DNA of 64,000 bases from Bilabrum cf. latius (lineage: Eukaryota): positions 434,001 through 498,000 of the forward strand of contig OZ237752.1 of NCBI GenBank assembly GCA_965178125.1. Direction: 5' to 3'. The notes under the pieces are model-generated. The model saw only the letters and a program-made list of their open reading frames with translations, did not search any database and was not told the origin of the DNA. Below, one piece after another: positions 21,457-59,464 of the stretch (positions are counted from its first letter, which is position 1; each line of letters begins with the position of its first letter). The position numbers were made by a program, and so were the translations under genes.

Positions 21457-23034
21457 TTATGGTTGCAGAGCGGACGCGCCAGCATCCGCTGCCCCGGCAC
21501 CATTCACATCCGAGTGCACAGGCGTCTGCTGCATCGGTGCAGAGCCTCCACCTCCACTCTCGACTTGCCGCTGGTCCTGCTAGCCATCAGCGCCATTCCG
21601 TGTCCAACGCCTGTGAATCTAGGCATTTTCTTCATTGGTACTGCCCGATTTCGCATCCCTATCAGCCCCAGAGCTCCCGCCCAACTGCTGCCGATGCTAG
21701 TGCTAGTGCTAGTGCTAGATCTACTCCTGTTGCTGGTGCTCTCCTCCGTAGGACCAGCCCTGCAGGTCCTCGTCCGTGACTGCGAGCAAATCGTCCTCCT
21801 CATCAGCATCCTCTCCATCGACATGCAGTAGCGGCTTACCGTCCGACTCCAAACCACCCCCTGCACCTGATGTCTTTCCCGAGGAACCGCTGCCACCGGA
21901 AGACCCGTGCCCACTCGTCACAATCTTCACCCGCCGCGGCAGCCCCTGCCCGCGGCTTGCCAGAAGTCGGTCCTCCCTGAAGAAACACAGCAAAACTAGC
22001 CATGCGCACATGCCTACGCACGCGCCGATCGCGGCGCAGTGCATCGACACGGCCAGCCCCGCATCCAGCACCTCGAGCGCCTCCTCTCCTGCTCCCGCTC
22101 CCCCGCCGCTGCCGCTGCCACCGGGCGCTACCTGCGCCCCTCCTGGCTGAGTTCTCATCTGCTCCGCCGCCCGAGACCAAGTCTCTACCAGGGGTCTCTG
22201 CTCTTGTTCCCCATCCCCCATCAGGTAGCCCCCCTCTCCCATCCCCGAAGGGGCCCACACATCGGCGCCCTGCGCATCTGCTGCAGCCATTGCTGTCTCC
22301 TTGACCACCCACAGCCCAGCGAACGCCCCCGCAATGGCGCTGGTGGCTACCAAGTATGGTCTTACAGATGGATGGATCGCGTAGAAGAATTTCCCGGCGA
22401 GTATGTCTCTCGAGCCATTCCGGACCCTGCGGGTGAACCAACGTACTGCGATGCCGTTGGTCGAGTCCACCAAGATCGTAGCAAGCAACGGGCCGGTGGA
22501 ACAGCCAACTATGGCACCTAGTAGGGCCTACCCAGCCAGATGCACCCCATCTAATGTACCAAAACCGAATAAGAGAAGTATAGCTGCGGACCCGGCCAGC
22601 AGCATGGCGTGAGTTTGCGAGAGCACAAACCAGAGAATGCTCTCATGAGATGCTCGTTCCTGCTTGCTCGATTCATATTCAGCTGATTTGCCTTGGTTTC
22701 CGCTTGCTGCACTGGGTTCTGACGCCCCACTGCAGCAAGCAGCACCTCCCTTTGCACATGCCCCCAACACGAGAAGAGATGCCGCGCACCCCGACACAAA
22801 CAAGTCATTTCTGGACTGCAGCAGTCCAAGTGTGATAATACAAAGCACGGCTGCCCCATACGCACCACTTAAACCCTGCAAACGGAAGCAAGGGACAATA
22901 CAATGCTTCTTGACAGTCTATACTGTGTGCTACGAGCTGGGATCACATTCAGATAATCAATTACTCACAGCCCCGCTGGATGACCATATGACCTCATTGG
23001 TTGAGCAAGCGTGCCCTTTATCGTCCTTCACCAT
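21457..23034 (-). CDS. PAP2-superfamily (DOLPP1-like) multi-pass membrane protein with Q/H-rich tail, ~494 aa; intron 22876-22968; 8 in-frame TAG
   Basis: ATG 23034 opens a 22-codon exon, followed by a phase-0 GTGAGT..TTGCAG intron. Several hydrophobic segments. RASHESILWF resembles DOLPP1 PSSHSQFMWF, and GVHLAG*ALLGAIVG resembles PAP2 motif C3 HxxxQVxxG. Ends TAA at 21459-21457. Confidence 0.62.
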
Positions 23035-37923: not shown

Positions 37924-40122
37924 AAAAGTCGTATCGTTCCATTCAGTCATCACCACCACCTTCGATATCTCGCACCGAACCCTCGTCCAAAGCTGAATCC
38001 CCGTGGCACTTATCCAACATCGGATTGAGGCTCCCGAGTTCACTCAGGATGATCCAGCAACACCTATACCCCGTCATGGTGGGGTTGTGGTGTAGCTAGA
38101 GCTCCTGGATCTTCGGTAAATGCAAGGAACTTTTTGTTCCTCCAGAATTTCACAAAACTTCACAATGCTATACATGTGGGTGGGCATTCAAATTGGGTTG
38201 CTTGCATTGTGTGGTGGGATAATCCACCTAGTTGTCCACCTGCGAAAGTACACATGAACTTGGGAGTGGCTGTCGCGGTAGGCATTTCGAACACAATGTC
38301 CATTCAATACAAGTAACAGGCATACAGACACGCCAAATCCGAGGCCTCGGATGGTGATGCATGAATTGTTTGGGCTCAGCACGAAGTTGTCAGAGTCTGG
38401 TTGAACAGTGTTTCCTCATTGGCCTGGCTCCAAATCGAACAACAAGACTTAAGACGCAGATAAAAGGCAAATTGAAGCTCAGCACACTGCTCGGGTCTTC
38501 TTAGAGGTTAAAATTTAGTTTGTCGTCACGAAGCGAGCCGCCCTTGCGGGTAGGCTCAAGTCAGTGGATTGACAGATAAATGGTCTCTTCACCGCAGCTG
38601 CCGTTGCCACATATCGCAGCAATTATCTGGACAAAACCAATATCGAATCATTTCAAGCTGTCAACACGGGCAAGGGGTCAGTGAACTTTGAAGACTATTC
38701 AAGCACACGTTTTCCGATCATGGCCACGCAGCCGGTGAAGGCCGGGCTCAAGAACACGGACCAATGTGTTATTCTTCATTCCCCAAATATACAAGATTAA
38801 CAAAGAAAATGCTATCGTCAACCTACACGGCCGAGGCAACCACACAGCTGCAGTCGTGTATGGCATGACCCAAACAATGATAACCCTCAGATACTATCTA
38901 GCGTTGGAAGCAAGTATCGTCAGTGCAGAAGCCACGAAGACTATCTGTTCTCCGAACCAAAAGGTGCCTCGGTCTCTTCAGCGGGCCAACTTTTGTGGTA
39001 ACAGCAAACCAAGTCACGAAAAGTGTTTACACGCATATGCTGCACGAATCTCACCTTTTAAGAACGTAGCAATAGTGATACACTCTGATTCGACAGGAAA
39101 ATCTGTGCAACTGCGGGTTTAGTAAGGAAGAAGCTCAAGGAATGGATAGTCACGGTGGCCGTAGAGACATGGGTTCAAGCTGATGCCAACAGCGGCCGCG
39201 AATCAACACCCCTCAAACAATGTAGATAAGTTACTCCATGTGCCACGTAATGCGACAGTCAGGTAGAGCTAATATGAGTTTCTCATAGAGGTGTATGCAG
39301 TGAACCGCAACAGTCCCAAACATACAGGCTACTCCAGGTCAGACAAGGCTGAAACAATAGAATCCTCAGTGCCAATGGCTCGGAATCCTTTAGCATAATT
39401 GTTCAGTTCATCACTCCTGGTGCAGACCCGGGACGGGCAGGCGCGGCAAACATGCACAAGCCGCCAGAGCACACAAACAGAACACTATATCGGTCGTCGG
39501 ACTAAAAAGAATGCGTTCTCGTCACTCCCTAAGGTAGGAAGACCGTCGTAATTAGCATAAATGAGGTTCTTCATTCGACCTACAACGGACAAACACTGAT
39601 CCCTAATCTACGATTCGATTCAGGCCAAGGGCTGACTGTCAATCCGTACACACCTGCCGCGGCCGTACAGTACAGCGAGGGATCAAACACGGCTGAGGAC
39701 TTACAGCTATTTCATAATGCACGGGTTTCACCAGTGATGAAATCGCCTGAAATTCTACTCCATTTGGGTGCCTAATTGTGCCTTCAGCGCAGGCAGCGGC
39801 GGCAGCGGCTGTCATAAACTGCACCTTACAAAATATGTAATTTATTCAGCGCTCGGTTCCTAGACGTGGGAAAGAGAGCGCCAAGGCAACGCAAACTTGA
39901 AGTGGGATATCTTGCTGCCCCGGCATTTTATCTTTGTTGTGTGCAGGCCAGGCTGCAGTACTACACGCCCTGCTGGCTGTTAGCTCGACGGAGACTTCCG
40001 TTGGACAGCTCTTTCTTGCAGCGGGTACATTCAACAGCTGAAGAGTTCGCTTGCCTAGGCGGAGCAGTTACCTTGATTGCTCAAGATAAGCTCTTTCATA
40101 CACGTTGAAGTTGTTATTAAGT

Positions 40123-43100
40123 ATGGAATCTGGAGCCAGTCGCAGGTTAGAGACATCGCAGAGTGTCCGTTCTGTCACGTCATCGAAAAAATCTGTGAGA
40201 CCGAAGAGGGTGTGAAGGGCGCTATCAGACCATCTAAAAAGATACTAGTTACTTTATTTCATTGCTAGGCTCGTCTTTTTAAGCAGGCCGATGACTTGCG
40301 AGAGTACTCGTGCTGTTGCCTCACCAGGTCCAGCTGGCTCCGAAGCTCCGCCATCCAGCTGTGGGCCCATCCGTGGTTCGATCGGTTCATCGTCGGGTGT
40401 ATTTTGCTGAACTGTGCCATTTTGGCCTTGAACGACCCACTTGATGTGGAGTCTGACGGCTGGCGGAACAAGGTCATCGAGGCAGCGGAGCTGCCATTCA
40501 CGATCATCTTCACAATCGAAATGATCGTGAAAATCATTGCCATGGACTTTATCGGCCCAAAATCGTATCTATCTGACGCTTGGAATTGGCTCGACTTTGT
40601 GGTGGTGCTGACCGGGTAAGAGCGCCATATTCTAGATTGACTCCAGCTTGCGTGCCGTGCGCCAAACAGCCCTTTTTCGTCTGTAGGCCTATCAAATGAT
40701 CTTGCAGGTTCATTTCTATGTTTCCATCGATGGGAAACTACTCCGCGCTGCGTACCTTCCGGGTGCTTCGGCCGCTGCGGACACTGACCTCGATTGAGAG
40801 CATGCGGGTGATCGTCAAGTCCATGCTGGCGTCCATCCCAGCCCTGTTCAGCGTGGTTCTTCTGTGCGCCTTCATCTTCCTTGTTTTCGGAATTGTTGGT
40901 GTGCAGTTGTGGCCTGGAGCTCTCCAAGGTCGCTGCATGTACGAGGACCCCGAGGCGCCCGGCACTCTGCTCCAGACGCCAGCAGAGCAGCACTGCCCCG
41001 TCTCGTGTGCGGACCAAGCAGAACTGTACCCTGGCGTTGAGTGCATTTAGTACTATGGGTAGCAATGCAGTTCCCAGACAGAGCTGCTGCATTCGTTCGC
41101 AAACGGAACCACTGCATCGGTGGTGCTGCCGACAGTGTGCCGCTATGTGGAGAACCCCAACTTCGGTTTCACCGGCTTTGACAACATCGGGCAGGCATTC
41201 CTGACTATCTTCACGTCAATCACCCTAGAGGGCTGGGTGGACGTGATGTACGGCCTGAACGCAAGCTGGGGAATCGCCCCGTTCAACGCCTTCTACTTCA
41301 TCTGCCTAATCCTGTTCGGCAGCTTCTTCCTCCTCAACCTGGCCCTCGCCGTGATCTGGGACGAGTACGAGAAGGCCGAACAGCAAGAGGCCGAAAAGCA
41401 CGAGAAAGAGGCCGCGGAGCAAGCTGCAATCGATGACGAGAAGCGCGCGAATGGGGAGGAAGTGCCGGCGAGGGGCAGCGGCGATACCGACGAGGGGGAA
41501 CGCGACGAGGACGAGGCACAGCTGCACCAAGCCCTGAATTCGTGCTGCGGGTCTGCCGGCCGGCCCATCGTCGAGAGCCTCACAGTGATCGTGGAAGCTC
41601 CGCTATTCGACTACGTGGTCACATTCCTCATCATACTCAACACGGTGGCTCTGTCAATGGAGTATCACGGCATGTCGGAGAGTTACACGACCGGGCTCGA
41701 GGTTGCCAACTACATCTTCACCGCGTGCTTCGCCATGGAGATGGTCTTCAAGATGCTCGGCCTGGGTCTCGCCGGCTACTTTTCCGTCAAATTTAACATC
41801 TTTGACTGCGTGATCGTCGCATTTTCGCTGGTGGAGATCGGGTTCGAGCTGGCGAGCTCGGATGCTCTGGGTGCCGGGCTGTCCGCACTGCGCACCTTCC
41901 GCCTCCTCAGGGTGTTCAAGCTGGCCAAATCGTGGGAGGATCTAAACAAGCTATTGTCTACCATCGCGCAGAGCATCATGGAGGTGGCCAACGCCTCGGT
42001 GGTCCTGCTCATCATCATGTTCATCTTCGTGCTGCTAGGCATGCAGATGTTCGGCGGAGTCTACGACGACAGCTTCTCGCCGGATGAGAAGCCGAGGGCG
42101 CACTTTGACAACTTCTGGTGGGCATTTGTGACCGTGTTCCAGGTTCTCACGGGCGAAAACTGGAACGAAGTTCTGTACAACACCATGTTTGCCGCGGGCC
42201 CTGGTGCGGCTGTCCTGTACTTCGTTGCTCTCAACATGGTCGGCAACTACCTCATCCTCAACCTTTTCCTGGCAATCCTGCTAGGTAATTTTGATGTAGA
42301 GCCGGACGTTGATGAAGACGAGGAGGAGGAAGAGGCGGGGAGCGGAGAAATAGGTCAAGGCTTTGGAAAGTCAGCTGCTGGAATGCACAATTCGCCGGGC
42401 GGGTCGGCCATCGTCGATGTCGCGAGGCGTGGACTTGGCAGCAGCAGCAGCGGCGGCGCCATGCCGCAATACACCGAGACCGAGTCCTCTGGGCTGTCTA
42501 GTCCCAAGCCCTTGCCGGCGGCGTCTGGCAACACCAAGGAGCTTCGTGCAGCGCTGTTCAGTGCTGCCTCGTCATCGCATGGGCCAGCTCCGTTCCAGGT
42601 CGAGCCCACAAAGAAGCCAGCGTCTACCTTGTCATCGGGAGCAGCGGAAGAACTGCCGCTTGGTGGCGCAAGTCGAGTGCTTTCAGCCCCAAAAAAGGGG
42701 GCATCTGACCACCTGATCGCCAGCAAGGGCGGTGCAAGCGGGCACCAAGGTGAAGAGAATGAGAAGGAGCTCCGGCAGTCTGTCTCGATGGAGGAGTTGC
42801 ACAGCGAGCAGAACCGCCATTCAGAAAACCAATCCATGGATGTCGCTGGCACCGCAAGCTCCAAGGCCACAGATGTGAACGCATCCTCACAGAGTGCCAA
42901 AGGACCAGGAACGGAGGCTGCGCAGGCTCACTCGTCGTTCGTCGTTGGAGTGGGGGGCAGCGCCGCGTCGCACTCGACACCATCTACGAACGCCAGCAGA
43001 CAGTCTAAAAGGTCCCAGAAGAGCGGCACTCCGCGGACCTCCAGGGAACTGAGCACCCCCACTAGGGGCAGTCGCCGGCGATCGAACGTGCTGAAGACGG

Positions 43101-46100
43101 CCATGTCGTTCCGCGGAAGAGAGGCCCGCATGGAGACCAAGCTGGCTGGTCCTGGCGGGAAAGAGATCACTGTGGGTCTCTCGGCGTTCGGAGACGTGGA
43201 GATATCGTCTCCGAAGAAGAAGAAGGAGAAGGCGTCTGGGGAGGGCGGCGAGAAGACCTACCAGGACCGCTTCTGGCAGCAAGCAAGCAGTGGAGAGGCC
43301 GCAAACTGCTGGGACGACTACTCCCTGTTCCTGTTTGCACCGGGCAATATACTCCGGCAGGGTTGCTTCGCGCTGGCGCACAACAAGTGGTTCGATCGAG
43401 TGATCCTGGCGCTGATTGCCATATCCTCCATCCTGCTGGCCATCGATGAGCCGAGGCTTGCGAGCTGCAAGGACCTGCCCACTTCCGACCCATCCAGCTG
43501 CAAAGTGCTCTCGGACACGCTTTTCTGGATGGACGTAGTCATATCGGGCTTCTTCGTCCTCGAGATGGTGGTCAAAGTCGTGGCCTTGGGCTTTGTGATC
43601 GGTGAGGACGCCTACCTCCGGTCCAGCTGGAACATCCTGGATTTCGTGATCGTGATCATATCCATCGTGTCACTGGCAGTAGGAGACGGCGGGTCTCAGC
43701 TCAAGGCCCTCAAGAGCATGCGGGCTCTTCGCGCCCTCAGGCCGCTGCGGGTGGTGGCTCGAAACCCGGGACTTCGACTGGTGGTCAACGCAATCTTCGG
43801 CTCCTTGCCAAAGGTGAGCAACGTGGCCCTGGTGAACTTCCTGTTCTTCCTCGTATTCGCAGTCATCGGAGTGCAGAACTTCATGGGGGCGCTCAATCGG
43901 TGCAACGACGAGTCCGTGTCAGAGGCGAACCAGTGCGTGGGCACGTACAACGCCACCGGGGACGCATGCATGCAGCTGCCGACTCCCGAGGAATCAGATG
44001 CTTGCGCACAGTCTCCGGTGGGAGCACCGTTTCCGCGCATTTGGGGACCGCCACCCTTCCATTTTGACAACGTGCTCAACTCCCTATTGACCGTGTGGGA
44101 GGTTGCCACGGGGGAGATGTGGCCGGATATCATGTACGAAGCAGTGGACGCCGTGGGACCGGACCAGCCACAGGTGCGAGACAACAACCCCGCGGCTGCC
44201 CTGTACTTCCTGGCCATCAACGTGGTCTTCGCCTTCTTCATGCTGGAGATTTTCACCGGTATTGTCATAGACAACTTCAACAACATCAAGGAGACTGCTT
44301 CTGGGTCTGCCCTGCTGACGGAGGACCAGCGCAAGTGGGTGGCCTCCACCAAGATGATGCTGTCCGTGAAGCCAGAAGAAGCCGTGAAGCCGCCTCCACC
44401 GAGCGGTTTTGATTGGTTTGATGCGTGCAGGTAGTGGTGCTGTGATGTGGCGCAGGCGGTGTGGTTCGAGTGGACGATCATGGCACTGATTCTGCTCAAT
44501 ACGGCAGTGTTGGCGGCTAGAACCTTCGGCCAGTCTCAACAGGTGGAGCTGGGCTTTGAGATTGCGAACTATGTCTTTGCTGCGCTGTTCATGCTCGAGG
44601 CCGCCATCAAGCTGCTCGGTCTCGGCCTGCAGCAGTACTTCCGCAAGCGCTGGAACATCTTCGACTTTGTGCTGGTGCTGGCTAGCATCGTTGGCATCGC
44701 TGCGAATTTCGGGTCCGTCGCCACTCTGTTCAGGATCGTGCGTGTCGCGAGGGTGGTCCGCCTCGTGAAGGTGTCAAAGGGGCTGCAACGTATGTTCAGG
44801 ACGCTCATCTTCGCCATCCCGCAGCTGATTAACGTGTTTGGGGTGCTGCTGCTGGTCTTCTTCATCTTCGCCTGCGTTGGCATGAACCTGTTCGGCGGGA
44901 TCAAGCATGGCGAATTCCTGAACGGCGATGCCAACTTTGATACTTTCTTTGTGGCCATGCTGACTCTGTTCCGCATCTCCACGGGTGAGTCGTACAACGG
45001 CATCATGCACGACTGCATGGTCCGGCCTCCGTTCTGCGTAGATGGGCAGAACTGCGGAGACGTCATCATCGCCCCGCTGTACTTCGTCTTCTTCTACATC
45101 ATGTCGGCGTTCATCCTGTTGAACCTGCTGGTCGCCATCATCCTGGACCAGTTCCAGGACACCAAGAGGCTAGAGGAGCGGGCTGGGTCCTTCGTTCTGA
45201 CTCCCTCCATGCTCGAGCATTTCCAGGGCACCTGGCAGACCGTCGACCCGGACGCGAGCGGTTTCGTCAAGTACGATGGCCTCATGAAGCTGGTCACGTC
45301 TCTCGATTACCCCTTAGGCCTGCGGGGTCACCCTGCCATCCGCACTGACAAGCAGCTGGTGCCCGAGGCAACCAGGCTGCTGTCGCTGCTCGACGTGCCG
45401 CACGTGAGCGGGGAGAGGTACCCCATGCTGGTGGTGCTGCAGTCGCTGGCCAACAACGCGGGGGAGCCGGAGTGGTCCGAGCTGGAGGTTGCGGCAACTG
45501 TCATGAACGTCGATGGTGACATCAAGTCGTTCGGTGGGATCTAGCAAGCTATGGCGGTGCGGGCGATCCAGAAAACCGCCCGGATTTGGCTCGCTGCCTT
45601 GGGGCTACGAAACAAAAGTGGGATCAACAAGCAGCCGAGCGAATCAAGCGTTTCTCAAGAACTGGAGCTCGCCACAAAGGGCGATGAAGCGCCTCAGGCT
45701 GCACAAACCGAGGGAGGGGCTCACGCCAGCGATGGAGGGGGTGCTGCCGCAGCTGCTGGGGATGCAGAGCTGAACAATAATGATACGCTCGAAATGATCG
45801 CCGAAGATAAGTGGCGGCACGAAAGTGGACACGCGGGTGCGCTGTCCAAGGTTAGTCCAGAGGGGCCTGTTGAATCGTTGCGGGTCGCAGGGGGAAAGCA
45901 GGAACGGTCAACTGCAGCAGCGAGTGGATCGGATCCCAAGACTGCTGTGGATAGCTCACGGGGTGCTCGTGCAACCGATGGTTTGAGTATTGTCGAGGAT
46001 ATGCCAGCCCACTCAAAGAGTGGCAATGAGATAGGCCGCCCGCCACAGCACGATAGATCCAAGTCGCCGGCAGGCGTGGTTCGATTGCCTCCGATAGGGG

Positions 46101-46111
46101 GCACTAATTGA
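40123..46111 (+). CDS. Four-domain voltage-gated cation channel alpha subunit with EEEE filter (Cav-like), ~1,940 aa; introns 40195-40268 and 40616-40707; TAG at 41048, 41060, 44432, 45542
   Basis: Four S4 sensors: LRTFRVLRPLR, LRTFRLLRVFK, MRALRALRPLR, FRIVRVARVVR. Pore loops: ITLEGW, LTGENW, ATGEMW, STGESY. EF-hand-like WQTVDPDASGFV and IQ-like AVRAIQKTAR follow domain IV. Ends TGA TGA. The first exon is inferred from phase-compatible splice sites. Confidence 0.94.
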
Positions 46112-46149
46112 TGACGTTTATATATCTTTGATAACTTTGTACACCGTAG

Positions 46150-46167
46150 CCGGCGCCGTGAAAGGTC
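46150..46167 (+). repeat. Left terminal inverted repeat core of the transposon
   Basis: CCGGCGCCGTGAAAGGTC, the exact reverse complement of 50027-50044. Confidence 0.9.
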
Positions 46168-47025
46168 CGCCATTATTGGCATTCCGAGTCCCAAAATCGC
46201 GACCATCGTGCCTTTAGGCTCCCATTGCTGAGAACTGGACCAATTTCTTGGGTAAATTTACATTGCAAAAATATCTAATGTAACATTTAAATGTAATGCA
46301 GTCCCAACGGAGCCATGCAATTCGCAGCATTAGACTGAAAACGAGTCGTGCTTGCGACCACCATTTTTGGCGACCACCCCCAGCCCAAGATTTTACTCGC
46401 TGGCGAGGGGTGCCAGATGCACGCACCGTGTGCCGCCAAAAAAGCTTTTCTTTGGTTTCTGTTGGTACTTAGTAGTTGAACACATACTTGACAACATGTT
46501 ATCAGGTCGCCAGGCTCATTCATTAGCAATCTAGCGAAATTTGGCTGCCATTCCAACACACGTCGGTTCAAACGGTTCCAAAATTTGCAGGGCATTTATA
46601 CCTTAGCGCAATAGACTTTTAACACACTGGCACTACTGTTGAGATACAAGGGTATTGAATGCAATATCATGTGGAGGATTCCGTCTAAGTTTGCGAGAAG
46701 AACGAGTGGGAGGCGAAAAAGTGGCTCCAGCGGCGCGTCCGAAGTTGGGTCTCGGGGTGCAAGTGCCCCTGGTGGGAGTGCCTCGTCTCGGCGTCACGAG
46801 CAGAAATCCGCCAAACTCAGGCTCATCGATCAAATTGAGTACGGTATTGTTATGGTTGATGGAATTGCATGGGCTGTAGCCGGCTATTTTCGGGGTACCG
46901 TACAATCTGCCGCAGAGGCACCGGAAGCCATGAATGTGGCACTCATTGACAGTATCCATGCATCCGTGGTATGCTTGACGAGGTGTTGGTTGAAAATCAT
47001 TCCATGGTGATGTGGACGAGCTTAA

Positions 47026-49583
47026 ATAATTATACAGAGGTATAATAGGGCCACAATCGGGCTTGCGTCCTGTGCAGAATTGGCCATGCACGGTGTTGCT
47101 GCAAGGCCACTGATATCAGCCTTCATCGCTTATTTGTGCTTAGCCTTCGCAGAAGCATCTCAGTCAATCCCAAAATTCTCATTGGAGTCTTGTAAACCTA
47201 TATCTAGCGTTTCGGTTGCTAGCAAGTAGTCAAGAAGCAGCCCGTCCCATGCGGCCAGTTCGAGCCGACGCGCTGGGTCCAAGCGTAAACGGCAAGAGGA
47301 CAATGCAAATAAATCGACAAAAGATGATGATTTACGTGATTTGTTGGGCGAAGCATAGGCCAGCGATGATGAGATGGACTATGTCGGCGATTCAGACGAG
47401 GACGAGCCGGTATCCAGTCGGTCTGCAACTTTGAGCCGGCCTCCGGTGCAGCATCGTAGGAGGCAGTAGGCTCACCAAGCAAAGCGGCGCAGAATAGAGC
47501 AATATGAAAGTATGTTTCCTATGGACAAAATTGCATCGTTGGTTGATGAGCCTGAATATAGGTACTTCTTGAATGACCGGGTTGTGATTGGCGGTGATGG
47601 GATCCCGATCGCTCGCACAGCGGCTACTCATGTGGCTGCTACTGAGTATGTCAAAGGCTGGATGACGGCTCATCATGAACAACCAATATCTCCAATACGC
47701 ATTCTGTGCTCGCTGGTGCCTCTCGATATTGCATTTTCGTGGCGAGGCACTGCAGCGGCAGAGGTAGCTGGCCAGGCAGCCGGCCAGCCGGCAGCGACCA
47801 ACCAATGGACATGCCAGTTGCCATGATGTTCCTGGCCGTGGTATTGACTCGGTCTCTCATTCGACCCCGGATACCTTTAGAATTGCTGCAATCAAAGTAG
47901 TTCCTGGTGCGCATGAAAGACGATATCGTAGTGCAAGACTGGAATCGGTTCCATCGAAACTTGTCTTTCGCCGGGAGGTTGCAGGAGGCTCCGGCACCCC
48001 TGCTGGCGGAGGAGCGCGCCACAATGAGGCTAGGGAGTGTGGGCAGTCCTCGCGAGCGGGTACTCATAGAATATCCACCAGGCATGCTAGATGCAGTTTC
48101 AGAGTACTTTCGTGCCGCTACTTTGAGCCCAAAGAGCATCGCCGTCGATGAGATGATGGTGATGGCGTACGGCCGAAATCGGGCATGTGTCATCATGCCG
48201 AACAAGCCCACATCGCATGGCTTTAAGCTATGGGCAGCTGCACGAAAAGACGGGTATGTGTACCATTTGGATCTAGCAACATCTGTTGCCGATGATACAC
48301 GATAGTACAGAGGGAAGACTGAGTACTCGTATAAGGTAGCAACCGGCAGCGGCACCGCTGCCGGGTAGCTGACCCGGATGGACCTGCAAACAGCAGCTGT
48401 TGCGTCGAAGGCAATGGGCAAAAACTTGAACGGGGGCCTCCTAGCGGTGGATAACTACTTTACATCGGCTCCACTGTGTGATTGGGCCACCAGCAAAGGC
48501 CTTCGGGTTGTTGGCACGCTTCGCCAAGGCAAAGTGAGCGGTGAGCTGTACCACGCGATTGGCTAGCTGAACAGACGAACCCCAGGCGAACGCGGGCATA
48601 CTGTGAAGCGCGCTCTTCTTGGGCCCAGCAAAGTATCTTTATGTAATGTAACAGCTGGTGATGTTTTTGATGCGAGTGAGCTTCCTGCGGGATCGCTGCT
48701 GGCCGAAGAGGACCTTGGCAGTCGGGGCCTGTTGAGCCCTGGCCAGACAGTAGCCTTTGACTCGCCAGATGATTCAGCTTATGGGATGCAAGTTTTTGGA
48801 TACTGTGACCGCGAACCATTTCTTATGGCTTCTAACATTCCTACGAAGTACTTTGTTTGCTTGGTAAAGACGCTACGGAGAGATGGTGGCGACCTGAGTG
48901 TGGTGAACGCGCCCCTCGTGTCCGTCCTCTACAACAAGTACATGGGGGGTGTGGATCTAGCTGACAAGTTCCGGACGCAACTTTCGCTAACAAATTCATT
49001 CCAGGGAGAGACTAGGGCATACTTAAGAGTGTGGGAAGGTTTAATGGAGCAAGTTATCGTCAATACGTACATCATCTGGGTCAACTTGGAGGCACGTCGA
49101 CTGCTACGCCACGGACCCACTCGTCGGCAAGCTGCTGGAGCTAGCAGCAAATCCGTTCAGGAACAGGTTTAGCACATGGTGCGGCATCGACAGGCTCGTG
49201 GTATGTTTGTACAGCTGTTGTATGACGAATTGATGCGTCCTTACCGACATGCACGTGCAGGAACTCGCGGTGCTGCAACCTCAGCTGGGATGCGTGCGGA
49301 GGCGACCCCCGGGAACCTTGGATGTAGAAAGCAGCACGTGGTAGCTACGCTGCTGGGCTCGCTCCATTTGATTGGAAAGGAGTAGTTACAAGCAGGACTG
49401 ATTAATTTTCTCAGTAGCGGACGATCAAAGAGCCGTCGAGGGGGGTGCAGCGCCAAGTGCAAGGGCTCCAGATGCAGCAAGCGGCAGCATCATTAGTCGG
49501 TTTCTTCCTACAAAGTGTGTTCACGCTGCTGCAAGTTCATTTGTGGGGATTGTAAAGAATCTCTGTATCATCTGGAAACATGA
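47026..49583 (+). pseudogene. piggyBac-type transposase (DDE_Tnp_1_7-like plus C-terminal Cys-rich domain) with 10 in-frame TAG and one apparent frameshift near 47730-47826
   Basis: Catalytic D/D/D in IAVDEMMV..MPNKPTSHGFKLW, LAVDNYFTS..VGTLR and YNKYMGGVDLADK. Cys-rich tail CSAKCKGSRC..CSRCCKFICGDC ends TGA 49581. The acidic/basic N-terminal part (open 47026-47826) is in a different frame from the core. An upstream exon from ATG 46668 with intron 46969-47037 is possible. The frameshift may be real decay or an assembly indel. Confidence 0.8.
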
Positions 49584-50026
49584 TTTGGCTGTGATGTAGA
49601 TTAAGTTGATATAAATGCCAAGTAGATAGATGCACAAGAATCGGGTCACGAAGCACGTAATTCATGGCAGGTCCACATTCGATTCAATATCTTGTAAACC
49701 GTTTGGTAACTTTTTTGCGCTAAGACTTATATATAATATAACCACCGATTAATTCAAAAAAGCTTGTTTATTTTGCAAGCATGCCTGCTTGGACAAACTT
49801 CTGCAGTATCAAAGTAGCCCTTCCTGAAAATCGAGCGTTTGGTTTCATGACCACCAAGTATACTATTGTCGCAAGTTTATCAATGAGTAACACTCGCAGT
49901 CGATAGTTAACTTATACAATTTTCAATATCTTGATATTATTTTAGGATTACTTGAATGGTACGCGAGAATCGGTAAGGTGAATTGAAGGTACCGATATCG
50001 GCGATACCGGTCGGTCGGCCAAATCC

Positions 50027-50044
50027 GACCTTTCACGGCGCCGG
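50027..50044 (-). repeat. Right terminal inverted repeat core of the transposon
   Basis: GACCTTTCACGGCGCCGG, the exact reverse complement of 46150-46167. Confidence 0.9.
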
Positions 50045-50099
50045 GTAGACTGCTACAGTAATAATAAAATCATGAGAACCTCAAACTGGCGCGTTAGTT

Positions 50100-53000
50100 T
50101 TAGAAGCGGTCCGGGGAGCTCAGGAACCTGGACGGGGACAGCATCGGCGGCCTGGACACTCGCCGCAGATTCGATACAGAGCCAGACCTCTGCTGCCTCC
50201 TCTGAGTCGACCTGCGACCGACTGGTGACATGACGCCCACGGACCCAGCCTCGTACGGTGTGCCGCGGTGGTCATCGACACCACCCCCCTCATCCCAGTG
50301 CCTCGACTCTCCTCTCGCTGCCGGGCTACCCGGCACGCTCCCATCATCGTCCTCCAAATGGCTGTGCGCAGCAACCCCAGCCCCCCCCTCTCCATCCCCA
50401 CCGACTGCACGCCCCTGCGACAGTGCAGTGCCCCGCACATCCCCTTCGCCGGCAAGGCGCACGCCCTCCACATCCCCGTGCCCGAACTCGCCACCAACCG
50501 CCGCCCCCAATATGCCGGCCCCTGTGCTGGAATAGATCGATCCTCCAGATAGGGTTTCCTGGCTAGTGCCACCGTGCAGTGCACCTTCAGACGTCGACAG
50601 GCCACTGCGAGCCCCGCCTTCGGACCCTGCAGTCCCGTGCCCTGACCCGGCACCGGAGCTGCCAAGGTCATTTGAGGCACCGGACCCGCGCCGGCCGCCC
50701 GTGCCGCTCTTCTGCGACTCGTGCCCCCCTGCACCCAAAGAGCCTCTCAGCAGACCCATGCGGCCGGGAGTCAGGCCCGTGATCACCACTGACTGCCGCA
50801 GGCCAGGCACATCCATCCTGGGGCGGGTCGCGCTGCTGCGACTCCGCTGAGCACGAGCAGAAGAAGATAGACCCGAAGAGGACGAAGATGAAGATGAAGA
50901 TGAAGATGAGGCACGATGGGAACCGCCAGCGGCTTCAAACTCCCCGTGCAGCGACCTCGACGTGGTCCTCCCGCCGCCCTCCCCGTCTCCCTCCAAGGCC
51001 TGCTTCCCACCGAATACACCGCCTCTCAGCGCTCCAGTGCCCACCGCGTCCTGTCCGCGGCTCGACCCTGCCAGGGCCCGTACCAGCCGATTCCCGATGC
51101 CAGGCACGGACGACGCCGCTGCCTCAGCCTCCTGCGCGGCACGGCGGGAGGGAGACAGAATCACGAGGTCATGCGCCCCCGAAAGCACGTCAGGCGCAGC
51201 GGCGTGGGACTCGCGCGAGGCCTCGTCTACAGTGTCTCCGTCGATGCTGCTCCGCCCGACGATCCCGCCGGCCGCCCTGCGTCCCTGCTGGCCAGGGCTC
51301 ACGTCGAAGGAGCCCGACAGCCCTCCGATGCCCTCAGAGGAAGACCCCCTCGAGCCCAGCCTGAGCTTGTCTCCGCCCCTGACTCCGGCTGGAGGCAGCT
51401 GGGTGTGGCCCTCTCCGGAGGAGGAAATCACGCGGGAAGCCGCGCTCGCTGCCGCAGCAGCCGCGGCTGCTGCAGACGCAGTTGGGGAAGAAGCCGAGCC
51501 CCGCTGGCTCTCTCCCGACTCGGCGGGGTGTGCATCCCCATCCATGGGACTCGAGGCCAGCGGCATCGGAGGCATCCTCGGAGACAGCCCGCTGGCCCCG
51601 TCCTCTTCACCCAGACTGGGAGGAAGAGCAGAGGGCCCGCTGCTGTCAGAGTGCTGCGAGCGCTCCCGCAGCATCACGGCACTGAGGCCATCTGCGCCCA
51701 TCTACGCCAAGGACCCCTCAAACTCTAGCCTGCGCTGGACAGAGCGCGCCCCAAGTCGCATCGAGTCCGACACGCTGGGCGACAGCACAAAGCCGCCCGC
51801 GAGGTCCTCCAGCGTAGCGCGGGGGTGAGAGGACAGCGACTCGCCGACGCACGACCCGTCAAGAGGCGCCCTGCAAGGGGTGAGGCCGTCATGATCCGAG
51901 GTTGCAGCCGAGACAGCGCGCCCCGCAGGCTTGGCTTCGCTCGCAAATAGGCCTGCATAGGCGAGAGGCCCGCCGGCCGCGTCGATAAGTGCCAGCGTAG
52001 TCGGCGCGCCAGTTCCAACGGCTCCATGCGCGGCAGCCTGCAAGCCAGGGAACGTGCCCAGCCGCCCGGTCTCTGTGTCTGGGGATGCCTGCACGCCGTT
52101 CTTCGCCCGTGCCTGCACCTCCAGGTCCATCAGGAGCTGCTCGTCGGCGGCCTTTTCCCTCTCTAGCCTCGCTACATCACGGGCGGATCGCTTCCGGCCC
52201 GCGCTGCGAGTCGCACCGCCACGGCCCCGCGAAGACGAAGAGGACGCAGACGAGGCATATGAGCGCCCAGACGCACCTCTGTCGATTCTCCTGCGCTTGG
52301 CACCCCTAGAATCGGCAGAGCCTGGCGTTTCACCACCCCTGGCGGCGGGGGCAGCCCGATGCATGGTCTTGCCACGGGGGATGGGAGGAGACCACGCAAT
52401 CTGGGAGCGAAGCCTCCTGCGGCCAAACGGGGTGGCATCTGGCAGCGTCGGCATGGAGTGCTCCTGTTCCCCGTCCATTGCCGAGAGAGACATGCCGCTG
52501 CTCGATGGCGGTCTCGCCATTCCGTTGGGCAGAGCGGTGGCGGAGTCGCGGCCATTGCGGGAGCGGCGCTGCAGGCCAGGAGACCCGTGCAGAATAGCGG
52601 AACCGGCGCCGCGCGAAGCAGGCCGGCCCGCAGCACCGTGGCCCCTGGCCCCTGCCCCGATAGCCGCCACGCTGGCCACATCTAGGAGAGCGTCCCCATC
52701 CAGGTGCTGCTGCCCCAGCGCGCTGACAGAGGTGCCCGCTCGCCCCGACACACCCGCTCTGGGGGCAGCGGTATCGGTCCCAGCCCCTCCTGATCCACCG
52801 GTGGATCCGCCCTGCTGGATGCCCCCGTGCCCAGCCACACCCCACATGGCGACGTTCTGCCCGGTGGGTTCTGCAGCCACGTGGCCGGACTCGCCCGCCG
52901 TCTCGTCCACAGAGGCCGTCCGCGAGTCGCGCCCGGCCCCAGTCCCTCCTGCCCTGGATGACCGCCCCTTCCGCCTTCTTGACGACCTCCTGGGCCTGTA

Positions 53001-55394
53001 CCCACTGTCCGTGTCGTCGTCCTCTCCGCCGTCGCCGTCGCCGTCGGCCGTTGAAGTGCTCCTGCCCCTGCGGCCACCGCCCCGCCGGCCGCCCCTGCCA
53101 ACGTATGCTTCGTCCGCCTCGCCGTCTGCACCACGCGCGACCGAGCCGCTGCGCGCCCTAGACTGCTTGCTGCAGCCGCTGCCGCCGCGCCTGGGTGCAC
53201 CTGCTGCCGAGTGCGAAGAGGCCTGGGCTGCGGACGAGGACGAAGACGAGGACGAGGACGGTGCGGTGCCACGGTGATTAGCACCAGAGTGCCCGTGCCC
53301 GGCGAGCACCGACGGGTCCAGCTGGCTCAGAACCTCGTTGGTGACCCGCAGCATGGGCCTCTCCCCGTCCTCTTCGAAGACAGGAAAGGCCAGGATTTCG
53401 ACAGGGAGGCCCTGCCTGACCGATGCCTCGGGACCGCCGATCTGAGCCACTCGCGCGATGTGGGCGTCTCTGAGCGCGGTGTACGTCTCCTCCACTGCAG
53501 TGCGGTTCTCCGGCGTGTCATCCCCTTTGGGAGCCTGGTCTGCCTTGGCCTGCTTGGCGCTCGTGCCTTGCTTCTTGTCCTGGACCGCGTACTCGTCGAT
53601 GCGGCGCTGCACCCACTTGGCGGTGTCGGGGTTGGCGAAGCCGTGCTGCCCGCCCTCCACCTTGCGCTTCATGCTGCTGTTCCAGTGGTTCTTGATGGCG
53701 TTGTCCGTCCGGCCGTCCACCAGCCTGGCGATGTCCGCCCATTTGTTCCCCAGGATCCTGTGCGCCTCGAAGATCACGTAGTCCTCGTCACGCTCCCATG
53801 GGCCCTTCTTCACGAAGGGGTTCAGGTGGTTGTGCCACCGCTCCCGGCACTGCTTGCCGATCCTGCCGGGCAGGTGCTCCGAAATCAGGCTCCACCGCTT
53901 GGCCCCGTGGAGCGCGACGAGTGCCTTGACCAGCTCGTCCTCTTCCTGCAGCCACTGGCCCTTGTACATCTTGGGAGGGACGCCGTCCTTGTGCTTGGTG
54001 GCGCGGGTGCCGGGCCGGTTGCCCAGGTGCGGTGTGGCCGGGGAGGCGAATCCACGGGTGGATTTACCGATCACGGGGCTAGTGATGCTGCTCCTGCCCG
54101 TCGGGAAGGTTGAGGTGGAGGCTGAGGTGGAGGAGGAGGAAGTGTGACCGGCGGTGCTCGCTGCCTTGGATCTACCGCTGGACTCTGCACCGGAAGCCGC
54201 TCCTCTCCTCCACTGGCTGATGTGTTCCCTGGCAAGAACATCCGCTGCGTTGGCTGCCCGCGCCACGGCTGACAGCGGCTTCCCCTGCCTGCCCCCATGG
54301 TCTGACGAGGCCGAGGACGAGGACGAGGACGAGGGCGGCATGGTGACGAGTGCCCGCATGCTGCTGCCCGAGGACGTGCCAGAAGACGATGAACCGCCTG
54401 CTGCGAACGCGGGGCCCGTACCAGCACCATAGGCGGAAGAGTAGTGCCCCGCGTCACCCTCGGTGCCGAAGCGCAGGAGCCGCCTGGGCGATGCAGCACC
54501 CGGCGCACCCACTGATATACCCTGCGAGTCAGGACCGCTAGAAATTGCGCCGCTGCCAGAGCCAAACCCGCCTGCCCCTGTCCCAGGGCCCCCCATGCCC
54601 CCCGCGCGGCTGCTGCTCAGCTCCGCATCGAAGTCCGCCCGCATCGCCGCCATCGCCACTGTAGATCCCCTCGATAGGCTGCCGCCCGCTCGCCGGCCCG
54701 CGGACTCGGAGCCCCGCTGGCTCATACCGCCTGTGGACAGAGCCGGGGACAGCAACGCGGCGGCGAGGCCATCCGGCGCTCCACCGGTGGATCCCACAGG
54801 TCCGGGAGGTCGCCTGCCCAGACCAGAGGGAGCGTGCGGGGGCATGGCCGTCGTGGACGGTGACACGGGTGCTGACGACAGCCCCACTGCGTCAAACAGC
54901 CCGGTTCGTGCGGCACTGAAGTCACTCGTAGAGGCCCCCGCTCTCAGCCCGAGCGAGCGAGGCGACAAGGAGCCCCCTTGTGCGGGAGTGCCTGCCTGGC
55001 CGTGGCTTGGGAGCGAGGGTGGGATCACTTTCCGGTGCACCAATGCAGCTTGTTCGCTTGGCATCAGGGGGTTGAAACCATGCGGTAGATATCCTGGCAC
55101 GTGCTGCCCCCCTGTTGCGGCAGCAGCGGCAGCAGATGCAGATGCAGCGGCGGCGTCGGCGTCGGCCAGGAGCATCTGCTGCACCCTTGAGGCGATCCGC
55201 ACCGGATCCAGGCCGAGAGACCGGAGCTTCTCTGCGTGCGGGCCATTGACTAAAGTACTGGCTCTGAATGAGCCCTTCATGCTCTTGCGGTACGCCTGCG
55301 CGGCGGCTTCGATGGCCTGGGCCGCTTGCTGCTCCGACACTCGAGGAGCGTCCATCCGACCATGCAGAACAGTGCTCGCAGATGCGTTTGACAT
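50100..55394 (-). CDS. c-Myb-like R2R3 MYB transcription factor with long low-complexity flanks, ~1,764 aa; one in-frame TAG at 51704
   Basis: [73 protein letters not shown]. ORFs 51702..55394 and 50100..51701 abut in frame across one TAG. Ends TAA 50102-50100. Confidence 0.92.
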
Positions 55395-56242
55395 GATTTT
55401 GTCACCCCTTCGGAGCGTACGTGTTTAAAGAAAATAGTAGTTTCTTTAGTCTCGCGTTCTTTCTGGTCGTGCTACGCGAGGCCGTAAGCGAGTCGGCCAC
55501 CCAGCAGCTCGGTCGTGTTCAAAATTGCCCTTGCGAGTCTTCCTGATCCCTGCTCTGAGACTCAGAATCTGGCAGTCTGCGGCGCATAGAAGAAATGATA
55601 AACAAACCAAATACCATATGGTTGCTAATAAAATGACTACGGCACGCTCTGTAAGTGGCAGTCTGGGCAAGACCGGTTGAGTTACACGAGAAATGCAGAA
55701 TCGGCCCTGTAAGGAGTTCAAAGGGTAAACCATATGCAGCACCCTCAACATATGAAGCGGAATAATACAACTATAGCACTGAAGCGACCTCATTCTCTAG
55801 AAGAGCTCCCATGACTGGCTAGGCAAAAACGCTACTGCTGTGTGAGTAGTCCAGGCTGGCTGCATCTGGCCGACACTCAGGCACGAAAATCCGGCCAACA
55901 CGCTTCAAGCATACATTAAAGGCATGCTTAACACATTTGCCCCTCGAACAGGCTCATTTCGGCTCAGGGTGTCGACATACTCGTCATGTCGGGTGTGCAC
56001 TGATTCAAAAATCTGCACAGCCTAAGACGACTGCAGCAGCCGCAATACTGCCATAAAGAGGAATCGAATGCGGATCACCGCTTATTCACTTTGTAATCAA
56101 ACTCACAAACCAGATTATTGTGTCTGAACGGAACCAGGGCGCGCTAGAGGCACCAGTTGCTGATGGACCCCCAAAGCCATGCGAATCTTGATTTTCGAAT
56201 GTTGCGTGCAAGAAGGGAGAGGTCCGTTCAGCTCACAATCCA

Positions 56243-59200
56243 ATGGACGATGCAGCGCGAAATAGAGTCGCACTAGTGATTTCATCGCAAGCTTCGCATT
56301 TAGAAGCTGGACTAGCAGCTATTCTTGGAACCTGCTCACTGAAAGTGCAAAGGAGAGCACCAATCAATGTTGGAGTTGCCGCTGCGCAAACTCTGCTTTA
56401 GGAAGCGGCTTGTGCAGCATCAAATACGTCTTCTGGGGCACCTGGCGGCCAACATGATGATCAAAAATCGGCGAAATCCGCAGTCAAGAAGCCTGGGAAG
56501 AAGAAGGGGACGTCAAAATCCGTGGAGACCCAGGGTTCTTCAGCTGGTAGCGAGACACAAGACCCACGCTAGTACGTCCCCCCACCATTTCACGTTCAGG
56601 AATTGCATCGGAATCAAATAATTGCTTTATTTCTGGAGGTCGACTAGCGCCGCGCTGCTGCTGATCCGTTGCTTGCAGCAGCAGCTCGGTAGGAAGGCCA
56701 GGCTGCCGGCGACGGCGCCCAGCCGCTGGAGTCCCTGGAGGGTGAGAAGGCGCTGTCTGCTGCGATCCGTAGGCTTAGATAGGTAATCGGTCAACTTAAT
56801 CCGGAATGGGGTCGCGCTGCGGTAGACCAGCCGGCAGCACCGACGGGCGCCTCCCTGGAGGACGAGGGCGGCGACGGCCGCGGCGGCAAGGGCAAGGGCA
56901 AGGGCAAGGGAAACGACAAGAAAGGCAAGGGCAAGGCAGCTAGTAGTGATGACTCAGCGTCTAGCCCGCGCCCCCAGTCGCAAGCAGCAACGCCCGCAGA
57001 GCAGGCGCGCCAGATAGGAAGCAGAAAACCGAAAGGGCAGACCGCCGGTCTCCAAGGCAGCACGCTGGCTCGTTGGTAGCGAACCTTCGACCCGGTTCGC
57101 CCGCCCGTGCTCATCAAGCCCTCCAAGAGAGGGTATGCCGAGTCCCTTGGCAGCATATCTGATGACGAGGACGAGGAAGAGGAAGAGGGGAGAGCGGGCG
57201 CGGCCGGCCCTGCTGCTGCTGACGATGACGATGACGACAACGATGCTGACAGCGTGACGGGGGTGTCTGCGGGGCATCAGGGGCGCGTCGGGTTCGCAGA
57301 CGGGCTTTTGGGGGACGTGGAGCAGGTGGAGGAGGACGAGGCAGACGAAGGGGTGCTGGCCAGGGTAAGGGCGGGCGAGTGGCACCCCCTGCTGATCGTG
57401 CCGCCCGTGTCACTCGAGCACGGCAGGAGGATGGTGCAGCTGCTCGAGGCTGCGGAGCTGCAGTCCTTGTCCAACGCGCTGGAGAGCACAGAGAGCAACG
57501 TGGTGGCCGTGCGGGCCCGCATGTTGAAGCGGGGCTGGCAGAGGGTGGACCACCTCATGGAATTTGTGTTCCCTGCCGACCTGCAGACCCCCAGGTCCAC
57601 GGGGCGGTTGCTGCTCCTGTGCGAGTGCGGGCCACTGGACGACAAAGGTAACTTGCGGGGCGGCAGGGCCGGCATGCACGTGCTCAGGTCGCACGAGCTG
57701 AAGCTCATGATGGACGAGATAGAGGCGGAGGATGCGCTCGAGGCGTTCCTCGGCTCGGGGATCGCGGGGGGCTTACCGGAGAGCGAGAGGGTGGGCATAC
57801 TCGCTTCCTTACGGGACGCGATCCGAGAGATGCCAAGGGTGTCGGAGGGCCAGGTGAGGCGGGTGCTCCGAGGGATGCACAAGGACAGCAGGAACAGGAT
57901 CGAGTTCGTGCAGCTGCAAAAGTACGCGACGGGGGTAAGGAGGCAGCGAGTCGCCGAGCTAAGGGAGGTCGCGGGGGGCAGAGCCTCTCAGGGGAAGCGG
58001 GCCAAGAAATACCACGTGTCGCCCCCGGCGCCCATCCTGGGAAAGGGGGCTCTTGCGGTCAGCGGCAGGCCCACGAGAGCGGCGTACACCACTTACTTGC
58101 ACGCCACGCAGAGGGCCTCCGTTGTTCCCCAGGGAACAAGGTCGAGGGAATCATCTAGGCCTCCCAGCGCCGCCACTCGATCGCCGCCGCGCACTAGCGG
58201 AACCTGGAATGGCGAGGTAGGGAGCCGCGGCCGAAGCACGGCAGGGTTCGGCGGCCTGCTGGGCGAGGAAGGTGCTGGCGGTGAGGAGGAGAGCAAGCAC
58301 GGCGGTGGCGGCGGCTTTGGGGGCACTTCGCGCGGCAGATTAGGGCCGTCTACGGCGAGCAGCAGTGCAAGTAGTGCTGGCATGGGCGGAGTAGATGGCA
58401 CGGGAGCGGGCAAGGAGGAGGAGGAGCAGGCCAAGGTGGTGAGGATGATCCAAGCCGCCAGGAGGGGCAGGCCCCCAGGGAGCGTGTCCGATCTGGGGAT
58501 GGCAGGGTACGGCCTGCGGGGTCCCATGGACGTGCTTGGAATGGCTGGCGTGCCTGCAGAAGGGGAGAAAGCTGGGTTGCTGGCAGCCACGGGAGCGGCC
58601 GACGCAGGCGTGGGTGGTGGCGGGCTGAGCAGCGGGCTGGAAGGCAGGATCGGCAGGACGGGCGCGGAGGGGCGGAGTCAAGAAAAAGGCAAAGGCAAGG
58701 GAAATGCCAATGGGAAGGGAAAGGGCGCGGCAGCAGCAGAGACGGGCACCATGCGCAGCGCGACTAGGTACGCCACGGTGCGCGGTGGTCCCGCTGGGGG
58801 CTCGCCTATGGCGGGGGAGGGAACACTGGGGAGGAGCAGCCCACAGCGGGGCACAAGGGGCCGTGGTGCTGGTGGGGGGTTAGGATCAGGCAGACCCGTA
58901 GGTAAGAAGACGCTGCATGCCGGCAGGCTGCTGGATCCTTCTGCTGCGGACGACGAGGCACCAGTGGATGGAGATGTCAGGGCCGCGCGAGTGCTCATGC
59001 TGGCGTCGCATGGCAAGGCCGCGCGGGCGGGGGGTATGGGACGCACCAGGGAGGAGAGGCTGGCCGTGGCGGCATCTCGCAGAGAAGCGGCCTCCAACCG
59101 CAGGAGGTAGGCGGCTGGTTCCGCAGCTGCGCTGGGCGCCGCGGGGGCCCGTGCGGTTGCCGCTGCTGCGTCGGGCGCCGCGGCGCGCCCCATAAAGCTG

Positions 59201-59464
59201 AACTCGACCAGCCGGTCCGGTTACTTCGATCCTGCTGTGCGGCGCTCGGAAAACAGTCGCAGGAGGGAACAGGAGAAGATGCTCGGCAAAAATGCTCACC
59301 TCGTCGCGGCGCACACCGGGGCTGCTAACGGCGTGGCGATTGCGACCAACTCGCTGCTGCTTCGCCGCGAAGCACCTGCTGCAGAGGACAAGTGGGATAG
59401 GGAAGCAAGCTTGCGCCGCACAGGCTTAGGAAGTCGTGTAAGGACGCACAAACGCATCTACTGA
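56243..59464 (+). CDS. Hypothetical protein (~1,073 aa) with possible degenerate EF-hand-like segments; 7 in-frame TAG
   Basis: One frame runs from ATG 56243 to TGA 59462, interrupted only by TAG at 56399, 56570, 56645, 56690, 56780, 57077 and 59108. GK repeats and acidic tracts are present. MHKDSRNRIEFVQLQ is weakly EF-hand-like. Function unknown. Confidence 0.7.

Follow-up and report, generated by a model that had tools for sequence, protein, structure and literature searches.

The stretch of DNA described here, denoted as the window, comprises 64,000 nucleotides (nt) of Bilabrum cf. latius (contig OZ237752.1 of assembly GCA_965178125.1, positions 434,001 to 498,000). It harbors, flanked by two convergent host genes whose stop codons lie at 46111 and 50100, a transposon of 3,895 base pairs (bp; positions 46150-50044) whose piggyBac-type transposase gene contains ten in-frame TAG codons. 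The guanine-cytosine (GC) content of the element is 0.50, compared with 0.59-0.69 in the surrounding DNA. All positions refer to the window. The element is composed of the following features, given in amino acids (aa) and open reading frames (ORFs) where applicable:

46146..46149, + strand: left target-site duplication GTAG; the same four bases stand at 50045-50048
46150..46167, + strand: left terminal inverted repeat, 18 bp, beginning with CCGG; perfect inverse of 50027-50044
46168..47085, + strand: 5' non-coding part, including a 131-aa ORF at 46615-47010
47086..47786, + strand: N-terminal part of the transposase, frame 1, three TAG codons
47780..47790, + strand: frame change, a 1-bp deletion in the window copy within a GCCGGCCAGCCGGC repeat
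47787..49583, + strand: catalytic and C-terminal part of the transposase, frame 0, seven TAG codons, terminal TGA at 49581-49583
48147..48149, + strand: first catalytic aspartate (Asp), D157, GAT, in an invariant column
48450..48452, + strand: second catalytic Asp, D258, GAT, within AVDNYFTS, in an invariant column
48954..48956, + strand: third catalytic Asp, D426, GAT, within MGGVDLAD, in an invariant column
49446..49571, + strand: putative C-terminal domain rich in cysteine (Cys) and histidine (His), C590 to H631, including TAG 49494; from alignment with relatives
49584..50026, + strand: 3' non-coding part from the stop codon to the right repeat, GC content about 0.50
50027..50044, - strand: right terminal inverted repeat, 18 bp; marked by the ends of contigs from four sequencing runs
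50045..50048, + strand: right target-site duplication GTAG; a contig of run X4 crosses it into the flank

The two terminal repeats pair over all 18 bp with 0 mismatches, and none of 100 shuffled sequences gave 3 matches. The 64-kb window contains no further copy of the element; the sole other match to the terminal repeat carries 3 mismatches. Two low-GC patches of the window, at 20-24 kb and 38-40 kb, showed no convincing transposon ends.

The 131-aa ORF upstream of the transposase has no Pfam match. Its end is altered in the copies found in runs X4, X7, and X8, which carry an extra T behind 46994. A fusion of this ORF to the transposase through the extra T was considered and rejected, as the shifted frame runs into a stop at 47043.

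The transposase and its assignment to the piggyBac superfamily

The ORFs were translated with TAG read as glutamine (Gln, Q), and the first ATG of the frame, at 47086, was taken as the presumptive start. The frame-1 ORF (47026..47826) contains TAG codons at 47227, 47356, and 47467, and the frame-0 ORF (47679..49583) at 47898, 48303, 48366, 48564, 49170, 49383, and 49494. All ten positions reported by the first-pass annotation, a model's reading of the bare sequence, were reproduced exactly on retranslation. It had also described a gene without internal TAA or TGA that has one frame change and ends at TGA, and this description holds across the 831 codons read from the ATG with a switch of frame near 47786 (10 TAG, 0 TAA, 0 TGA). 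The ten off-frame readings (five other frames of each of the two ORF segments) contain between 2 and 23 TAA and TGA codons each. Under decay, the probability that ten out of ten stops would be TAG is about (1/3)^10.

The product matches the Pfam family PF13843 (DDE_Tnp_1_7) with an expectation value (E) of 8.7e-13 and 48.7 bits, the cut-off being 22.4. In an alignment with piggyBac-family proteins, D157, D258, D426, and D429 are invariant in all 24 sequences, so that the catalytic triad is intact, as the first reading of the sequence had proposed. The profile of this alignment retrieves piggyBat (9c0f) at E 4.8e-92 and piggyBac (6x67) at E 1.3e-72. Aligned directly, 6x67 matches only weakly (E 0.75), with D157 aligned to the DE..GR..PNKP motif of 6x67 and D426 to its GGVD. 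The Cys-rich tail likewise appears complete: C590, C594, C599, C614, C617, C618, C622, C625, and H631, encoded within 49446-49571, align with the Cys-rich columns of relatives and would form the corresponding domain (a cross-brace zinc finger), its first Cys pair being C-x3-C, not C-x2-C. The identity of its protein to those members of the 24-sequence alignment that stand outside the family is about 20-26%. The element's PF13843 core, DDD triad, Cys-rich tail, terminal repeats, 4-bp duplication, and occurrence at multiple loci are those of a piggyBac element; the target duplication does not have the sequence TTAA.

An exhaustive phmmer search of 1.84 billion representative sequences yielded 430 hits at E<=0.001. 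The top matches are eight short, close fragments, and the sixteen next hits examined are 28-39% identical over the matched stretches. A word-based protein search at similar length gave no hit among 7,992 candidates. None of 115 pattern matches in JGI metagenome contigs and none of 79 in IMG/VR viral contigs were confirmed (the former judged by protein alignment). Two further candidates were discarded as chance matches. One is a single weak Streptomyces match in GTDB genomes (40% over 43 residues, E 3e-4, computed over the candidates only). The other consists of 62 single metagenome matches to the terminal-repeat 18-mer, ascribed to chance in GC-rich DNA; a blastn comparison with 63 loci gave one 22-nt match.

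The frame change near 47786

Contigs from four public sequencing runs (X1, X4, X7, and X8) were compared with the window over positions 45300-50900. The first-pass annotation had suspected a 1-bp insertion or deletion at 47730-47826. Exactly such a difference is seen in the copy of run X7 (about 3-5% diverged), where an additional C after 47786 links frame 1 with frame 0 and restores the reading frame. In addition, the sister-family relatives P0013 and P0015 cross the frame junction within one ORF. Since these relatives are encoded in a single frame and the X7 copy has the extra C, the ancestral gene was continuous and the copy in the window is short by one base. The window copy is thus defective, being split into two frames by the loss of 1 bp near 47786. 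An intron at this position was considered and rejected; the possible GT..AG introns, 16 and 31 nt long, give the wrong phase, and the relatives are collinear.

A different explanation, held to be rather improbable, is that the copy is intact and autonomous and that the frame change is either an assembly or sequencing error in the short GCCGGC repeat or a programmed frameshift. The missing base does fall into the repetitive GCCGGCCAGCCGGC stretch, and the rest of the ORF is intact. Only run X1 agrees with the window at this point, at a depth of about 5, and because X1 may be the source data of the window itself, an assembly error at 47786 is possible. Against an error stands the X1 contig of 2161 nt, which shows 0 gaps relative to the window and lacks the extra C. 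Against a programmed shift stand the relatives, whose single-frame junction indicates that such a shift would not be ancestral.

Copies of the element in public runs

Each of the four runs has contigs or loose ends that terminate precisely at 46150 and 50044, beyond which unrelated sequence follows. The element is therefore present in multiple copies that are joined to different flanks. A contig of 3030 nt from run X8 represents the element without 47707-48639 and carries CTAC at both sides; 138 of its 2,962 aligned bases differ from the window. A contig of run X7 passes from the right end of the element through TTAA into another copy, which it enters at position 46481; other copies have TTAAA there, and the contig represents a nested insertion. 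A contig of run X4 extends from 50018 into the right flank of the window with 0 base differences. Because this right end and the flank of the window are identical, the insertion is common to the window and to the organism labelled B.

The contigs of organism B share the insertion site but depart from the window sequence upstream of 46140, and a 12-nt insertion, GAAGATGAAGAT, is present in them behind 50883 in the coding region of the gene with Myb domains. Both differences, at 46140 and at 50883, are strain or allele variation.

The mobility of the family bears on the idea that the gene is not part of a transposon at all but a host gene domesticated from piggyBac, comparable to PiggyMac or the PGBD genes. 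Its catalytic residues are intact, its frame is long, and the insertion is common to the organisms labelled A and B, as would be the case for a domesticated gene. Nevertheless, this origin is very improbable in view of the perfect terminal repeats and the target duplication, the same ends on different flanks in four runs, the internal-deletion derivative and the nested copy, the frameshift in the window copy, and a base composition foreign to the host.

Target sites

The tetramers flanking the copies are GTAG (window, both sides), CTAC (X8 contig, both sides), CTAT, CTAA, GTAT, GTAG, and ATAG (one flank each), and TTAA. Among these listed flank sets, the central TA is present in 8 of 8 and TTAA in one, that of the nested copy. 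Each set was taken from one contig, and 14 more loose ends stand outside the list. The duplication comprises 4 bp rather than TA alone, because in the two copies for which both flanks are available the outer and inner bases form direct repeats and do not complement each other. Provisionally, the target rule can be written as NTAN rather than TTAA.

This would be unusual for the superfamily. As described in the literature, TTAA is a general feature of piggyBac elements, rare single-copy exceptions are ascribed to mutation, and the terminal repeats measure 12-19 bp with a conserved first C (PMC5381638). A literature search found no piggyBac family with NTAN targets, which is not proof of absence, as the list of non-TTAA cases in supplement S2 of PMC5381638 was outside the search. 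The element may represent an undescribed piggyBac lineage that has lost its TTAA specificity, requires only the central TA, and is confined by its coding to a clade using TAG as the only reassigned stop codon. This proposal is tentative and is given slightly less than an even chance.

TAG as a sense codon in host genes

Five genes surrounding the element have open frames only when TAG is treated as sense:

2145-18221: host ORF of 5358 aa, 27 TAG codons
26446-37923: host ORF of 3825 aa, 12 TAG codons
40700-46111: host ORF of 1803 aa, 4 TAG codons, a cation channel
50100-55424, - strand: host ORF of 1774 aa, 1 TAG codon, with Myb domains
56192-59464: host ORF of 1090 aa, 7 TAG codons

With the standard or bacterial code, the longest ORF of the window measures 1673 aa. 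The five host ORFs contain 51 TAG, 0 TAA, and 0 TGA in 13,850 codons. The 1803-aa product has four Ion_trans domains (E 1.3e-213), one of which matches calcium and sodium channels of known structure (E 1e-106). The host thus reads TAG as sense.

The reassignment is restricted to this codon. The limits of four of the host ORFs and of the frame-0 ORF of the transposase are unchanged under translation table 6, in which TAA is also sense; these ORFs are consequently bounded by TGA and contain no TAA. CAG, CAA, TAG, and TAA occur in the five genes at a ratio of 416:85:51:0, CAA accounting for 17% of CAA plus CAG. If the ratio of TAA to TAG followed that of CAA to CAG, the host genes should hold about 10 TAA codons and the element about 11 (an estimate of this analysis), and none were observed; the in-frame count of TAG to TAA in the element and the five host genes together is 61:0. 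Four of the five genes terminate at TGA and one, the Myb gene, at TAA. Since the expected TAA codons are absent and the Myb gene ends in TAA, the reassignment concerns TAG only, with TAA and TGA still serving as stops. This is a pattern of the type of NCBI table 15.

The amino acid inserted at TAG in the host is most likely glutamine, judging by the contexts in which the codon occurs. A run of TAG TAG CAG TAG at 17955-17966 lies in the acidic tail of the 5358-aa protein and resembles a Gln tract. TAG site 1245 of the channel aligns to variable positions occupied by K, S, or R and is uninformative as to the amino acid.

A small ORF of 499 aa (21460-22956, - strand) has the highest TAG density of the window, 20 per 1000 codons; five of its TAGs stand at alternate codons (residues 412-420) within a Q/H-rich tract. 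The beginning of the channel (S1-S3 of domain I) is found at 40077-40619, some 80 nt upstream of the 1803-aa ORF and in a different frame, so at least one short intron is likely in this gene. The other host genes in the window run up to 16 kb without interruption. In the Ala/Gly/Ser-rich proteins of 5358 aa (first 4285 residues scanned) and 1090 aa (all residues), no Pfam family was recognized, and the 3825-aa protein gave only a sub-threshold match to DNMT1-RFD (21.3 bits, the cut-off being 22).

Codon usage and age of the TAG codons in the transposase

The transposase uses CAG, CAA, TAG, and TAA at a ratio of 13:14:10:0. TAG hence accounts for 10 of 37 putative Gln codons (27%), and the three codons are employed almost evenly. 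In the five large host genes, the TAG share of Gln codons is 2-16%. The TAG density of the element is 12 per 1000 codons, compared with 0.6-6.4 per 1000 in these genes. The earlier statement that TAG is denser in the transposase than in host genes therefore stands with respect to the five large genes; the 499-aa ORF has a higher density. GC content at third codon positions is 0.49-0.56 in the element and 0.69-0.77 in the host genes. By itself, the higher TAG share cannot serve as a clock, because weak codon bias would explain it equally well. Near-even use of the three codons, with TAG at 27%, does indicate either a long evolution of the gene under the reassigned code or ancestors that were already written in it.

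Further information comes from other copies. In public protein sets, the family is present only as fragments of 68-282 aa, in accordance with the prediction of the first-pass annotation that standard annotation would see a dead gene. P0008 (93% identical, residues 370-497) and P0158 (188 of 189 residues identical, 309-497) both terminate just before TAG498, and P0010 (94% identical, residues 500-568) just before TAG569. P0161 matches residues 163-227 of the N-terminal product at 64 of 65 positions and reaches the deletion of the X8 copy. Both TAG sites testable in close copies (498 and 569) are therefore fragment ends, in a copy that has diverged by 6-7% in protein. Differing bases of other copies are listed for 40 of 269 positions; none of the 40 falls on a TAG codon, which permits no conclusion for the other eight sites. 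In the fragments of the X8 copy, 14 of 262 residues differ, whereas the absence of constraint would predict about 27 by a rough estimate, made without sight of the bases at codon level; the difference is a weak sign of past selection on the transposase.

Sister families with 50-62% identity in protein are found on contigs measuring 2704, 3404, and 3918 nt, where they are similarly fragmented. At TAG209, the two relatives that cover the site, at 59-62% identity, both have Q. Opposite TAG230 stand R, K, and Q (Gln in one of three relatives), opposite TAG296 R and S, opposite TAG74 K and T, and opposite TAG498 T with an adjacent Q. Overall, Gln is found in 3 of 10 pairs of relative and site, and L, E, Y, or W in none at these sites. 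The fragment P0012 ends at the column of Gln434 of the window copy and of P0011; the codon beyond its end is not visible. The earlier suggestion that the family has resided in this lineage long enough to adopt TAG is borne out by the sister fragments, which stop at both testable sites, and by the Gln opposite TAG209.

That the window holds a dead standard-code piggyBac copy whose TAGs are ordinary nonsense mutations has a negligible likelihood: it could invoke the one frame change and the K or S found opposite some TAG sites in relatives, one step from TAG, but is contradicted by ten stops that are all TAG in 831 codons without TAA or TGA (vs 2-23 of these in the other frames), by host genes that need TAG as sense, by the recurrence of the stop sites in copies 6-7% diverged in protein, and by the Gln opposite TAG209 in both relatives.

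Proposed history of the element

The explanation favored with high confidence is that the window contains one defective copy of a long-resident, multi-copy family of cut-and-paste piggyBac DNA transposons, written with TAG probably meaning Gln, in a GC-rich host that has reassigned TAG alone. The one long gene of the element measures about 832 codons. It is supposed that a DDD transposase of this family binds the 18-bp terminal repeats and cuts with a 4-nt stagger, and that the element re-inserts at a target in which only the central TA would be fixed (NTAN), thereby creating the 4-bp duplication. The window copy would move only if another copy provided the enzyme. The family has lived and diversified in the host lineage: copies at other flanks, a derivative with an internal deletion, and sister families come from samples of the same kind.

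Several points weigh against this explanation or parts of it. The missing base is confirmed by X1 as the sole run, and X1 may be the window's own source data. No tRNA gene, and hence no tRNA with a CUA anticodon, was detected in the window. The NTAN rule is derived from 8 flank sets of a single contig each. Two of the ten TAG sites can be checked in close copies, through the points at which predicted protein fragments end, and the stop there is presumed to be TAG. Finally, the K, R, S, and T opposite sites 74, 230, 296, and 498 fit a polar residue and are no proof of Gln.

Significance

Gene callers using the standard code split the family into pieces of 68-282 aa. Because they fragment genes in this way, transposons are under-counted in organisms with reassigned stop codons, and intact transposases are filed as dead. 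With TAG at 27% of its Gln codons, the gene is expected to yield no enzyme in a standard-code cell, while a standard-code element entering this host would lose only TAG as a stop. This asymmetry in horizontal transfer is a prediction argued from logic.

If the NTAN rule is true, the family would offer a natural test of how piggyBac enzymes recognize their targets and would bear on the origin of TA-bounded excision in ciliates and on the engineering of target choice. If the reading as a relaxed lineage is true, the family would represent a natural intermediate showing how a transposase bound to TTAA can relax its requirement in a genome of 65% GC, in which TTAA is scarce. Such a family would also be a case of mobile DNA locked in by the genetic code, with a PiggyMac-like cut in a free-living transposon. 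Independently of the element, the window adds evidence for a TAG-only reassignment beyond the few published cases, unless the code of this host has already been described.

Comparison with known systems

Codes in which TAG is sense while TAA remains a stop have been reported from few eukaryotes, with UAG read as Gln in Iotanema spirale and as Leu in the rhizarian exLh (PMC5304391). These codes resemble that of the window host in having TAG as sense together with TAA and TGA as stops. A literature search found no piggyBac transposon in a TAG-only code, a result that is not proof of absence.

The closest mechanistic counterparts are piggyBac of Trichoplusia ni (6x67/6x68) and piggyBat (9c0f). 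They are alike in the PF13843 core, the DDD(D) residues, and the Cys-rich tail, and also in the terminal repeats with an initial C and the 4-bp duplication, which implies the same staggered cut. Unlike these systems, the window element and its copies show GTAG, CTAC, and other duplications with a central TA that are mostly not TTAA, and the window gene holds 10 TAG codons that are unreadable in the standard code.

PiggyMac, the domesticated transposase of Paramecium, makes cuts with a 4-base stagger at the ends of internal eliminated sequences, of which the central TA alone is conserved (PMC3408717). This relaxed, TA-centred cut resembles the NTAN duplications of the window element. Paramecium also uses a code with reassigned stop codons. 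PiggyMac is encoded by one host gene that lacks transposon ends, and its substrates are unrelated sequences, whereas the window enzyme is encoded inside a multi-copy element that has terminal repeats of its own.

Ciliate transposons (Tec, TBE, and others) use the reassigned stop codons of their hosts as sense. Since these examples are familiar, a transposase written in a reassigned code is not new in principle. Tec and TBE differ from the window element in belonging to other superfamilies (Tc1/mariner-like) and living in other hosts, while the host of the window element is GC-rich and has reassigned TAG only.

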